Shown here one piece after another: positions 8,800-30,891 of a DNA stretch of 64,000 bases. A model generated the notes under the pieces. That model was not told the DNA's origin. It searched no databases and saw only the letters and a list, made by a program, of their open reading frames with translations. The DNA is taken from the sequence record PP761450.1; one strand, written 5' to 3'. Made by a program: the position numbers and the translations under genes. Source of the DNA: Escherichia phage LHE287. How positions within the stretch are numbered: the first letter of the stretch is position 1; each line of letters begins with the position of its first letter.

Positions 8800-9047
8800 T
8801 TGCGTTCCTCTTCTTTAATAAACTGCAATAACTCTTCCATCAGCCCTTTCTTCTTGATGAACTGTAACACCAGGATGAAGCGACGGAAGGAGCGGGGGAC
8901 AACACGATAACCCTTCGCCCAGTAGTTCACAACATTAGAACAATCCAATAAACGAGCCAGCCCAGATTGTGACACCCCGAGGCTCAGCAGAACCTTGTAC
9001 ATGTACTTCTTGTCATTTACCGGAAGCTCTTTCATTCTTAAACTCAT
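8793..9047 (-). CDS. Small HTH DNA-binding protein
   Basis: SQSGLARLLDCSNVVNYWAKG helix-turn-helix-like segment. Confidence 0.4.
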   Translation of the reverse strand: MSLRMKELPVNDKKYMYKVLLSLGVSQSGLARLLDCSNVVNYWAKGYRVVPRSFRRFILVLQFIKKKGLMEELLQFIKEEERKC

Positions 9048-28768: not shown

Positions 28769-28916
28769 TGTTTGAAACTGATTTATTATCCTACTTCGTG
28801 ATGTGTGATGAATTGAAGTTACACGGCTATAGCATATTTGAAATCAACGAGTCGATGCCATGGCATCTTGACTTGTTAACCGAAGCCCTCAAGGTCAGGT
28901 TGTCTAAGAAACAGTA

Positions 28917-28939
28917 ATCCCGCTTCGGCGGGATTTTTA
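28917..28939 (+). terminator. Rho-independent terminator
   Basis: ATCCCGC-TTCG-GCGGGAT hairpin followed by TTTTT. Confidence 0.6.
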
Positions 28940-28987
28940 TTGGCTTAACTGTAAAATCGGTTAACACGAACTTTCTTTACCTGAAAT

Positions 28988-28996
28988 TGCTATAAT
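28988..28996 (+). promoter_or_regulatory. Possible extended -10 promoter (TGCTATAAT)
   Basis: TGnTATAAT element in the long intergenic region upstream of the gp5-like gene. Confidence 0.3.
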
Positions 28997-29238
28997 GGGC
29001 TTGTTCCCGAGTTATTTGTTGGTGTTTGTCTGTTTTGAATCAGATTGTCAGTAAAATACCATTTTTCAAGGAGTGTTCTGGGGTGTACAGTTATTGCCTC
29101 GCCCTTATGCCTCCATGGCATTGGAATGGTGCTGCCCGCATAGGGCGGTTTGATGAGCGAAGCGAATAGGATCGAATAAAACAAATAAAATGAACGGAAG
29201 CAGAGCTTCCTATAGTATATAAGGCAAAATCAGCTGCG

Positions 29239-29246
29239 CATAAATA
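29239..29246 (+). promoter_or_regulatory. Possible late promoter variant (CATAAATA)
   Basis: 7/8 match to TATAAATA about 35 bp upstream of the gp5-like start. Confidence 0.25.
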
Positions 29247-29280
29247 CCTTCAAATCCTTGTTTGACAACCGGAATTCAAT

Positions 29281-30891
29281 ATGTTAGACAATATGAGATG
29301 GTTTTACGGCACCGTTGAAGATGTCAACGATCCAGACCAAAATGGGCGAGTTGCTGTTCGCATATATGGCGTACACACCGACGATCCCGTCCTCCTGCCT
29401 ACGGACAAACTCCCATGGGCGAAGGTACTGATGCCTGCTTCTAACGCCTCCTCTGCTGGTTTAGGTTGGTCTCCAACGGGCATCATTCCTGGTACTGAGG
29501 TTATGGGGTTCGCCCTTGACGAAGCATACCAGAATTTACGCATCACCTGGACTTGGACTGGTTCAAGTCCTACTGATGGTGCCGACACAAACCCACTGGC
29601 TCTCGGGCAGGTCGTTCAATCTGTAGAACGTCAGGCGTACAACGCCGTCACTGACGTTCCTGTGAAACAAGAAGACGAACCACAACCAGATCCACAACCA
29701 CCTGTTGGTGGGTATGATCCAGAGAAGTGGATGACAATCGCTCGTGGCGAATTAGGTATCAAGGAGTATGCCGGAAAGTTCAACAACAACCCGCGCATTA
29801 TAGAATATCACAAGACAACCTCCCTTGGTGCTTCTGAAGATGAAGTGTCGTGGTGTGCGGCGTTCGTGGGTTGGGTTATGATACAGGCTGGATACACGTC
29901 TACACGCTCCGCTCTTGCCCGATCTTACCTTACATGGGGCACTCCACTGTCAGCACCACAATATGGCGCTATCGTAGTCTTCCGGCGTGGTAACAACCCT
30001 ACATTTGGACACGTAGCGTTTGTGCAGAAGTTCGATGCAAACTATGTCTGGTGTATTGGTGGCAACCAATCCGATTCAGTGAAGGTCAGTCGTTTCAGAC
30101 GTTCTTCGGTCTTGGGATATCGTTGGCCTGGTCCTGCTAACACAGCCACAGCCGCGCCTGCGCAGCAGAATGGTAAATGGTCAGAACCTATCCCAGATCG
30201 TACTCCAAAGGAACAACCGACTCCGGCTCCTACTGGGCGAGTACAGGATATTGACAACACTGGAGAAACCATGGTTCCGGCTGCGGGTGGCTCCAAATAC
30301 CCGTACAATAACGTCATGGTGTCCCGAGCTGGGCATATTATGGAAGTGGATGACACCCCTGGTGGTGAACGTCTTCACTGGATGCATAAGTCTGGGTCTT
30401 ACAAGCAAATGTTGCCGGATGGTGATGTGGTCAACAAGTCCGTCAAAGACCACTATGACCTGACGATGTTCAACAAGCGTTATTATGTCGGCGGGGACCA
30501 CAACCTGACGGTCAAAGGAACTGAAGTTCAGCGCAAGACAGGTGAGGTCTATCATTTGCATTCCAACAACTACTCAAATGTGGTTGCGGGCACAGCGCTG
30601 ATGAAATTCAGTGACCTAGCGGAAATGCAAGCGCAGAATATTCTGCGCATTATCTGCGAGACTCTGGAGGTCGGCGGGACATTGAAGGTTCCTAAGATTC
30701 TAACGACTGAGATCATCGCTGACAAACTGACTGTCGCTCAGACGATCAATGGTAACATCATATATGCCGAAGGTGCTGGTCGCGCTTCTTCTCTGTCAGG
30801 TGCAACCCCTGCATCCCCTACGGGTCCGGGTGAGATTGACATCAAGGCAGAATTAAAAGACAATGGTGGTAATTTCGGCACCAAAGAGTAA
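29281..30891 (+). CDS. Baseplate central spike (gp5-like) with CHAP-like peptidase domain and C-terminal beta-helix region
   Basis: N-terminus WFYGTVEDVNDPDQNGRVAVRIYGVHT resembles the gp5 OB-fold domain; central Cys/His region (VSWCAAFVGW...PTFGHVAFV) typical of CHAP-like peptidases. Confidence 0.75.
   Translation: MLDNMRWFYGTVEDVNDPDQNGRVAVRIYGVHTDDPVLLPTDKLPWAKVLMPASNASSAGLGWSPTGIIPGTEVMGFALDEAYQNLRITWTWTGSSPTDGADTNPLALGQVVQSVERQAYNAVTDVPVKQEDEPQPDPQPPVGGYDPEKWMTIARGELGIKEYAGKFNNNPRIIEYHKTTSLGASEDEVSWCAAFVGWVMIQAGYTSTRSALARSYLTWGTPLSAPQYGAIVVFRRGNNPTFGHVAFVQKFDANYVWCIGGNQSDSVKVSRFRRSSVLGYRWPGPANTATAAPAQQNGKWSEPIPDRTPKEQPTPAPTGRVQDIDNTGETMVPAAGGSKYPYNNVMVSRAGHIMEVDDTPGGERLHWMHKSGSYKQMLPDGDVVNKSVKDHYDLTMFNKRYYVGGDHNLTVKGTEVQRKTGEVYHLHSNNYSNVVAGTALMKFSDLAEMQAQNILRIICETLEVGGTLKVPKILTTEIIADKLTVAQTINGNIIYAEGAGRASSLSGATPASPTGPGEIDIKAELKDNGGNFGTKE

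Follow-up and report, generated by a model that had tools for sequence, protein, structure and literature searches.

Between two baseplate genes of Escherichia phage LHE287 (sequence record PP761450.1), we found a conserved, folded element at approximately positions 29003-29215 of the window, by which we mean the whole 64,000-nucleotide stretch analyzed. The element lies on the + strand, upstream of a gene for a gp5-like baseplate hub protein. It could well be a cis-acting, promoter-proximal leader RNA of pre-late transcription by the host polymerase toward gp5, a reading to which we give about half of our confidence. That the element is at least a functional + strand RNA is considerably more likely. 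The gap in which it occurs is a regulatory cassette rather than spacer DNA. Its components are, in order, an intrinsic terminator (28916-28939), a TGnTATAAT promoter motif (28988-28996), the folded element and a predicted T4-type late promoter (29239-29246). The first-pass annotation of this region, made from the sequence alone, had suggested that it might encode a small RNA or a regulatory leader. This suggestion is supported by signs of purifying selection, a fold on the + strand, helices with compensatory changes and a conserved promoter motif upstream. All features are listed in Table 1.

Conservation and structure of the element

Over positions 28700-29350, the window shares 99.8% identity with Escherichia phage vB_EcoM-RPN242 of the Ackermannviridae (Aglimvirinae; hereafter RPN242), whose positions minus 15980 give window positions. 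Most of this region also aligns to 265 records, which belong to Agtrevirus, Limestonevirus, Kuttervirus, Taipeivirus and related genera. The gap itself aligns across approximately 270 Ackermannviridae records. Between genera, the core of the element is 70-97% identical, compared with 44-61% for the third codon positions of the flanking genes.

These figures derive from comparisons of the window with LIMEstone1, Det7 (Kuttervirus) and May (Taipeivirus), given here in that order. In gp26 and gp5, identity at third codon positions is 60-61%, 44-47% and 45-47%. The corresponding values are 95%, 80% and 70% for positions 29063-29102, and 97%, 71% and 79% for positions 29103-29167. Positions 29193-29220 are 100%, 96% and 57% identical, with the hairpin in this segment being misaligned in May. 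The least conserved part of the element, at 48-60% identity, is an A-rich, purine-rich stretch (29168-29195) with an AT skew of +0.23 to +0.37. Judged by these alignments, the non-coding core is under strong purifying selection.

The fold has a clear strand preference. Positions 29003-29215 have a predicted folding energy of -69.8 kcal/mol (z = -4.1) as + strand RNA and of -47.7 kcal/mol (z = -1.6) as - strand RNA. Moreover, the G:U wobbles of hairpin P2 and the tandem G.A pairs of hairpin P3 form on the + strand only; the conserved U:G and G:U wobbles of P2 become C-A mismatches on the opposite strand.

The 3′ module of the element (29103-29171) consists of a hairpin (P1), a pseudoknot and two further hairpins (P2 and P3). 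We tested this core structure in an alignment of 20 distinct sequences, comprising the element described here (copy A), its orthologs and a paralogous copy B discussed below. In the proposed fold, 99.0% of alignment cells are paired, versus 28-46% after a shift of the 3′ partners by 1-3 columns. Two-sided changes occur at six core pairs. The covariation score is 0.233 versus 0.104 in shuffled alignments, and 0 of 500 shuffles reach 0.233, although this control exaggerates significance among related sequences. RNAalifold, when applied to 15 sequences from five genera, recovers P5, P1 and P2. The structure and covariation analysis across related phages that the first-pass annotation had proposed as a check thus yields a conserved fold with compensatory changes.

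The individual helices vary in ways that preserve pairing. In P1, AU/UA of the A copies is replaced by CG/AU in the B copies, and all cells are paired. Part of its loop is predicted to pair with the linker that follows, forming a pseudoknot of 4 bp, and one A:U pair of this pseudoknot is replaced by C:G in both copies of Taipeivirus. With 1 nt in loop 1 and 4 nt in loop 3, this pseudoknot is, in our judgement, a sterically ordinary one of the H type. P2 exhibits two-sided changes at two pairs (C:G to U:A, and U:A to C:G), with UA, CG and UG alternating. The layout of P3 is A-Y, tandem G.A, G-C and then either a GAA loop or a 7-bp extension. At pair 55:82 of this hairpin, 15 sequences have CG and 4 have UA, and the apex in B copies is the 7-bp extension, which is fully paired.

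Two hairpins precede the 3′ module. P5 has two pairs with two-sided changes, namely 80:95 (UA in 9 sequences, CG in 6) and 81:94 (GC in 8, AU in 5, GU in 1). P4 is tentative: nearly all clades have, at the equivalent place, a thermodynamically weak hairpin that displays UGAA in its loop on differing stems.

At its 3′ side, the element includes a conserved terminal hairpin (29196-29210), which occurs in relatives with four different complementary stems, including GGAUGC/GCAUCC, GGCGGC/GCCGCC and UUAAUUC/GAAUUAA. The sequence TATAGT or TATAAT is located directly 3′ of it. This hairpin may be the 3′ end of the element or a pause site. It scored as terminator-like only on the - strand, where GUUCAUUUUAUUUGUUUU follows it, and could stop antisense transcription through gp5 from leftward early genes beyond 31340.

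The single-sequence fold contained a long-range helix that closes the whole element (29003-29020 with 29180-29196). We rejected this helix, which is not conserved and is either clade-specific or due to chance. Compared with shuffled sequences, its 5′/3′ duplex has z = -1.9 in the window and z = -1.0 to +1.0 in other genera.

Paralogous copies and associated promoters

The first-pass annotation missed that the element is a member of a small paralogous family. Although no second copy was found within the window, the RPN242 genome holds two further, partial copies, B and C, both outside it. The 3′ module recurs in copy B, and a portion of this module in copy C. Copy B is in a 366-bp gap upstream of a baseplate wedge (gp6-like) gene and has the orientation of that gene. 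It shares the core at 29109-29160 with copy A at 88% identity, and the two copies have similar covariance-model scores (87.1 bits for A, 82.6 bits for B). Copy B is 93-95% identical over 216 nt between RPN242 and Kuttervirus phages, CBA120 and Det7 among them, which is far above the identity of coding regions. Its first 143 nt are at least 85% identical in all other genera listed. In some records, a hypothetical protein or the wedge gene is annotated over copy B.

Copy C, upstream of a sliding-clamp gene, shares GAGCGAAGCGAATAGGAT, P3 and a hairpin that we call P0. In motif scans of IMG/VR, C-type copies were found only in Aglimvirinae, and individual genomes of Kuttervirus, Taipeivirus and Aglimvirinae contained both A and B copies. 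Both B and C start with P0, which has the form [4 bp]-GA-GUUGU-GA-[GY-GUYA-RC]-GA-ACAAC-GA-[4 bp]. Its compensatory variants include CUUC/GAAG, CUUU/AAAG and AUAC/GUAU in the outer stem, and GU/AC versus GC/GC in the inner one. The C-GA-G ... C-GA-G motif is present in P3 and twice in P0, and thus this tandem-G.A motif is used three times in the family. Copy C also contains two tandem 19-nt repeats, RTTATTATCTTTAATAAAG, followed by a hairpin, AUAAAUGCC-GAA-GGCAUUUAU. One Agtrevirus locus has a single such repeat.

Promoter motifs are found upstream of all three copies. For copy A, the extended -10 element TGcTATAAT (TGCTATAAT), which the first-pass annotation had already noticed at 28988-28996, is indeed conserved across genera: TGYTATAAY occurs at the orthologous site in Aglimvirinae, Kuttervirus and part of Taipeivirus. 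Within the window, TGNTATAAT has 5 occurrences versus 1.3 expected. The motif has the form of a sigma-70 extended -10 promoter, i.e., TGnTATAAT oriented toward the downstream transcript, for which a -35 hexamer is dispensable, and transcription from it is predicted to start near 29003. A sigma-70 scan did not list it because it has no -35 hexamer. The -10 of copy B varies at two tolerant positions only (TATCCT, TATCTT, TATCGT, TATGCT) and is located 17 bp after an invariant CTACTTTTCT. In copy C, TGgTATTAT occurs after CTGCTTTCTT. Given these motifs, all three elements appear to be promoter-proximal and aimed at the next gene.

The first-pass annotation also overlooked a T4-type late promoter that separates the element from gp5. 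Its sequence, CATAAATA, is unchanged in all 25 of the distinct orthologous gaps, and the corresponding site is annotated as a late promoter in LIMEstone1. The late 5′ untranslated region ahead of gp5 would be 25-28 nt in the seven phages examined. Late promoters have been predicted for gp5 and gp6 in phage AG3 (PMC3121705). T4-type late promoters are recognized by a TATAAATA-like octamer approximately 6-7 nt before the start of a late mRNA in a phage with gp55, gp33 and gp45. The predicted promoter at 29239-29246 conforms to this description, and annotated genes for a late sigma factor, a late co-activator and a sliding clamp indicate that the phage encodes T4-type late machinery. Like T4 late promoters (PMC2988020), the octamer precedes gp5 in a phage encoding these three factors, but its first base is C rather than T. 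This resemblance to T4 concerns only the last component of the gap, which is distinct from the structured element.

Possible roles of the element

The layout of the gap, the duplication of the core and the orientation of the copies with the next gene are best explained by a cis-acting pre-late leader. In such a scheme, transcription of the operon containing gp26 and a small gene, orf49, would end at the intrinsic terminator. Approximately 50 bp further on, the sigma-70-type extended -10 would start a + strand transcript near 29003. The first ~200 nt of this transcript would fold into P4, P5, P1 locked by the loop-linker pseudoknot, P2, P3, the A-rich stretch and the terminal hairpin. The core of pseudoknot and hairpins would be a platform to which either a protein or the polymerase binds, and this platform would set how much transcription, or how much RNA, persists past the terminal hairpin. 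Late gp5 mRNA would be made from the T4-type late promoter beyond the element. Since the same core occurs in the same position and orientation before the wedge operon, both baseplate operons would share one control. We infer, for this model, that the promoter fires, where the transcript ends, that it acts in cis and that it has a binding partner.

Several observations weigh against this model. The stability of the core alone is ordinary (z = -0.7), and Miltonvirus and Nezavisimistyvirus keep the core only in part. As to the covariation, the shuffle control is lenient toward related sequences, and only five genera contributed sequences to the structure. There are few independent compensatory events because the A and B copies of one genome tend to share variants; indeed, the two copies within a genome appear to evolve in concert. 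The extended -10 is without a -35 hexamer, the start site near 29003 is a prediction, and searches of the literature found no transcriptome for Ackermannviridae or Kuttervirus. On the + strand, the terminal hairpin lacks a proper U tract, and is followed by UAUAGUAU or UAUAGUAUAU. Finally, given that the late promoter is located downstream of the element, the latter would be missing from the main late gp5 mRNA, and what would be gained from a pre-late leader before a structural gene is not obvious.

An alternative is a stand-alone, trans-acting small RNA (sRNA) that extends from approximately 29003 to the hairpin at 29196-29210, whose targets would be other RNAs or proteins of phage or host and whose position before gp5 would be incidental. 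In its favor, the downstream late promoter makes gp5 expression independent of the element. Such an sRNA would also fit the presence of an upstream promoter, the conserved structure and a 3′ hairpin with four covarying versions of its stem. However, the UAUAGUAU sequence after this hairpin provides no U tail, so that the 3′ end resembles neither an efficient terminator nor the end of an Hfq-type sRNA, which consists of an intrinsic terminator and its U tail. Copy B lacks a conserved 3′ hairpin ahead of its gene, and the orientation of all three copies with the next gene is unexpected for action in trans. Moreover, no target was identified. We therefore consider an sRNA unlikely.

A replication origin of the type of T4 oriF and oriG is, in our view, rather improbable. 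Here, an R-loop formed by the transcript in the A+T-rich stretch would prime leading-strand synthesis, and the folded 5′ part would aid formation of the hybrid, as ColE1 RNA II does. The order of promoter, structure and A-rich, purine-rich stretch (29168-29195) conforms to this idea, as do the location of copies B and C at points of divergent transcription and the two 19-nt tandem repeats in copy C. In T4, repEA is close to gene 5, the counterpart of the gene downstream of the gap. T4 oriE needs an early promoter and was mapped near repEA (PMC3016281). However, formation of R-loops in T4 is independent of specific sequence (PMC3016281), which leaves conservation of a pseudoknot and hairpins at the level of base pairs unexplained. 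Copy A has no iterons and is away from any point of divergent transcription, and a search for iterons or direct repeats in the gap found none. In addition, the A-rich stretch is the part of the element that is least conserved.

The conserved sequences might instead act as DNA, in the form of sites or extruded hairpins that aid the late baseplate promoters, e.g., as a clamp-loading or enhancer site. We assign a low probability to this idea. In its favor, GCGAAGC (29157-29163) is a sequence known to form a very stable DNA mini-hairpin, and a T4-type late promoter is always found 60-250 bp downstream of the element. The AG3 paper remarked upon extended similarity ahead of the late promoters of gp5 and gp6 (PMC3121705), and T4 late promoters are activated by a sliding clamp loaded onto DNA (PMC2988020). 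By contrast, the G:U (G:T) wobbles and tandem G.A pairs are retained on one strand only. Similarly, the compensatory changes maintain intramolecular pairing, including that of the pseudoknot, and this is hard to reconcile with recognition of duplex DNA. The conserved, correctly oriented promoter directly upstream also argues against this idea.

More speculatively, and with little confidence, we mention that the element and its copy before the wedge operon might represent an as yet undescribed class of phage RNA. A pseudoknot-containing transcript, synthesized by the host polymerase immediately upstream of a T4-type late promoter, might remain bound as an RNA-DNA hybrid or recruit phage factors, and in this way provide an entry point for the sliding clamp or a replication primer that switches on the late baseplate promoters. 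If true, pre-late transcription, replication and late gene activation would be physically coupled.

Finally, the first-pass annotation had noticed a 28-codon open reading frame (ORF) with an AAGGAG ribosome-binding site (RBS) and had raised the possibility of a leader peptide. The ORF and the motif are present, and in all Aglimvirinae and Kuttervirus the 28 codons are open with the same start and stop despite two 1-nt indels. However, status as a gene is not supported. The ORF overlaps P5 and P1-P3. Between Aglimvirinae and Kuttervirus, amino-acid identity (62%) is below nucleotide identity (72%), the differences are distributed 10/6/8 over the codon positions, and the two indels shift the middle of the ORF into another frame. 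A leader peptide would be expected to have a conserved start, RBS and frame, with substitutions concentrated at third positions; this ORF does not exhibit that pattern. The RBS is lost in Kuttervirus. AAGGAG is replaced by TACGCA or TACGGA, GTG gives way to CTG, and Taipeivirus has a frame-breaking 1-nt deletion. None of RBS, start and frame is retained in Taipeivirus, Miltonvirus and Nezavisimistyvirus. In Serratia phage 3M and Erwinia phage Ea2809, both the start and the frame are missing, and the Serratia and Erwinia phages have no counterpart of the ORF. Copy B keeps the same nucleotides while the downstream frame differs among genera. When we considered all ORFs of at least 15 codons on both strands of the gap in ten phages, we found no conserved peptide except where the nucleotides are nearly invariant. 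A micro-protein is thus very improbable, and the ORF should not be called in annotations.

Relation to known systems and neighboring features

We compared the gap to several known regulatory systems. PeSLs are short terminator-promoter motifs that occur in many repeats in T4-like myoviruses, are concentrated in hyperplastic regions and are tied to gene shuffling (PMC2839356, PMC4122927). As in PeSLs, a terminator-like stem-loop and a sigma-70-type promoter occur together between genes here (28916-28996). However, there is one such pair in the window, it is in a conserved core region, and it is followed by a 200-nt folded element that is absent from PeSLs. T4 oriF/oriG and oriE (PMC3016281) similarly have an intergenic promoter followed by an A+T-rich stretch, but share no conserved RNA structure, whereas in our case the folded RNA is the conserved part.

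Two other systems involve folded RNAs. The put RNAs of phage HK022 are cis-acting, promoter-proximal antitermination RNAs with two stem-loops. The element resembles put in that it is a folded RNA just past a promoter, is present in paralogous copies within a genome (put having two), exhibits covariation between copies and has an orientation compatible with action in cis. Nonetheless, there is no similarity in sequence or fold, with the element having a pseudoknot and tandem-G.A hairpins, and we identified no strong downstream terminators to override. The pseudoknot in the leader of T4 gene 32 nucleates binding of the gene's own product beside the RBS. The predicted H-type pseudoknot here is likewise in a 5′ leader of a transcript of a T4-related phage, but approximately 150 nt, including a late promoter, separate it from the start codon, and it has no sequence similarity to that of gene 32.

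Searches for known RNA families were negative. With permissive thresholds up to an E-value of 10, Rfam searches of the gap and of copy B gave only terminator look-alikes and noise. The best of these (isrB, rsmX and istR) scored 18-22 bits versus gathering thresholds of 35-56, and rest on the terminator hairpin alone; no family attains even half of its threshold. At E-values up to 10, no relevant match was obtained for 28940-29290 or for copy B. The put family was not among the matches at E-values up to 10. ARAGORN predicted 0 tRNA or tmRNA genes in the whole window. The element had no match in 5,426 complete E. coli genomes, and a search with nhmmer of recovered loci located it only in enterobacterial genera and not in the environmental contigs. 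The covariance model, applied to 57 environmental contigs with the gp5 N-terminus, to divergent Vibrio, Serratia and Erwinia loci and to the RPN242 genome, detected no further full copies, but did detect P3-like hairpins alone in Erwinia phage Ea2809. Motif scans of bacterial genomes and metagenomes had no element-like hit among the 240 matches listed, with the pattern being too degenerate and matching by chance in G+C-rich genomes. The literature that we searched, Ackermannviridae genome papers included, contains no description of the element. Taken together, the terminator-plus-promoter part of the gap is PeSL-like, and the folded element, apparently without a described counterpart, is a candidate for a new RNA family to which the motif could be submitted.

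We considered two additional explanations for parts of the element. A hammerhead ribozyme core consists of CUGAUGA, stem II and GAAA, with three helices. The sequence UUGAUGAGC-GAA-GCGAAU (29151-29167) looks core-like only in the A and C copies of Aglimvirinae; others have ACGAGC...GCGAGU, and the Rfam search of the element had no hammerhead match. We also considered sequestration of the gp5 RBS as in T4, where a hairpin that contains the late promoter makes early read-through transcripts untranslatable. In 6 of the 7 phages, the mean unpaired probability of the initiation region is approximately equal for the long and the late transcript. Because the gp5 RBS is thus no more buried in long transcripts, silencing of early read-through by a hairpin, as in T4, does not apply.

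Ackermannviridae, the ViI-like phages that include CBA120, Det7 and LIMEstone, are in wide use as candidates for biocontrol and therapy, and their regulation is known only from motif predictions. The fact that the element marks both baseplate operons points to a shared control step between transcription by the host polymerase and T4-type late transcription.

Table 1. Features of the gap upstream of gp5 and of related loci. Positions refer to the window unless another coordinate system is stated.
Feature	Position	Strand	Basis or remarks
gp26-like baseplate hub gene, upstream operon	27962-28768	+	Pfam T4_baseplate, E = 4.9e-46, whole profile covered
orf49, 49 codons, translationally coupled to gp26	28768-28917	+	ATG overlaps gp26 stop (TAATG)
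Intrinsic terminator of gp26-orf49 operon	28916-28939	+	Hairpin and T run, conserved position
Extended -10 element TGcTATAAT (TGCTATAAT)	28988-28996	+	Motif and conservation
Structured non-coding RNA element, copy A (predicted ends)	29003-29215	+	Fold and conservation
Hairpin P4 (tentative), stem UCUG/CAGA, loop UUUUGAAU	29029-29044	+	Recurrence across clades
Hairpin P5, UGU.C / G.ACA	29074-29089	+	RNAalifold, two pairs with two-sided changes
28-codon ORF, GTG 29083 to TAG 29169	29083-29169	+	AAGGAG at 29068-29073, 9 nt upstream; judged not a gene
Hairpin P1, AUGCC-UCCAU-GGCAU, 5 bp	29107-29121	+	Pairs kept in A and B copies
P1 plus pseudoknot, 4 bp, P1 loop CCAU (29113-29116) with AUGG (29126-29129)	29107-29129	+	Covariation
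Hairpin P2, GCUGCCC-GCAUA-GGGCGGU, 7 bp	29131-29149	+	Covariation and conserved wobbles
Hairpin P3, AU-GA-GC-GAA-GC-GA-AU, tandem G.A pairs	29153-29167	+	Covariation
Terminal hairpin GGAAGC-AGA-GCUUCC	29196-29210	+	Stem variants in relatives; -8.1 kcal/mol
Predicted T4-type late promoter CATAAATA for gp5	29239-29246	+	Invariant, 34 nt before gp5
gp5-like baseplate hub / cell-puncturing gene ("spike gene" of the first-pass annotation)	29281-30891	+	Pfam Gp5_OB, E = 1.9e-12; CHAP, E = 5.7e-11
Copy B	132784-132999 of RPN242	-	366-bp gap upstream of baseplate wedge (gp6-like) gene, in that gene's orientation
Copy C	8990-9045 (locus outside the window)	-	Upstream of sliding-clamp gene; shares GAGCGAAGCGAATAGGAT, P3 and hairpin P0

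The terminator that the first-pass annotation had called strong, at 28917-28939, is present as stem and T run. Its stem, AATCCCGC-TTCG-GCGGGATT (28916-28935), has 8 bp, of which 5 are G-C pairs, begins inside the stop codon of orf49 and is followed by TTTTTATT. The folding energy is -13.4 kcal/mol (z = -4.8). The position is kept with other complementary stems, namely CCCCGC/GCGGGG in Taipeivirus and CCCCAC/GTGGGG in Kuttervirus, and the annotations of LIMEstone1, May and KWBSE43-6 include it as a terminator. Thus, a G+C-rich hairpin with an immediate U run is found at the 3′ end of an operon, as is characteristic of intrinsic terminators.

The first-pass annotation described an unannotated 38-codon ORF at 28801-28917. 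This ORF is the 3′ part of orf49, a gene of 49 codons that is annotated in the relatives RPN242 and LIMEstone1. Using tblastn, we matched the orf49 protein in 282 phage records, with the lowest identity being 39%, in a Vibrio phage. The protein has its own PHROG family (phrog_9633, E = 2.9e-39) and also weakly matches phrog_634, "baseplate hub assembly catalyst". Comparison with Det7 and May reveals a coding signature, in that codon positions 1 and 2 are 82-92% identical and position 3 is 57-61% identical. orf49 should therefore be retained as a gene in annotations. Because it is a real gene, the non-coding gap before gp5 is only 363 bp (28918-29280), and not the 510 bp previously stated. The gap is nonetheless the longest in the window, as had been claimed, according to the annotation of the relative with 99.8% identity; the runner-up is approximately 240 bp.

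The "start" codon of orf49 varies among relatives. Aglimvirinae and a Vibrio phage have ATG; at the homologous position, Kuttervirus and Taipeivirus have ATT, Serratia phage 3M has ATC and Erwinia phage Ea2809 has ATA. In the window and all loci compared, this codon overlaps the gp26 stop codon by one base, and the residues ahead of the first internal methionine are kept as protein. The last codon of gp26 is the same as the orf49 "start" codon (ATT or ATC) in Kuttervirus, Taipeivirus and 3M. Both re-initiation at AUN codons and a +5 hop across the stop codon, which would produce a gp26-orf49 fusion, fit these observations.

The gp26-like gene is also annotated in RPN242 and LIMEstone1, and the gp5-like gene is annotated in relatives. 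The gp5-like hub protein has a CHAP peptidase domain at residues 187-262, where T4 gp5 has a lysozyme domain.

LIMEstone1, a Dickeya phage, is 88-100% identical to the window over orf49 and the whole gap, except in the A-rich stretch at 29168-29192 (56%) and around the -10 at 28981-29002 (77%). Third codon positions of orf49 are 98% identical to LIMEstone1, compared with only ~60% for those of the flanking gp26 and gp5 genes. This pattern suggests that the LIMEstone1-like segment (28768-29250) was either exchanged recently between genera or is under unusually strong constraint at the nucleotide level. A perfect 10-nt inverted repeat, TGTTAACCGA / TCGGTTAACA, flanks the terminator at 28874-28883 and 28957-28966, with one arm within orf49, and is weaker or missing in other genera.

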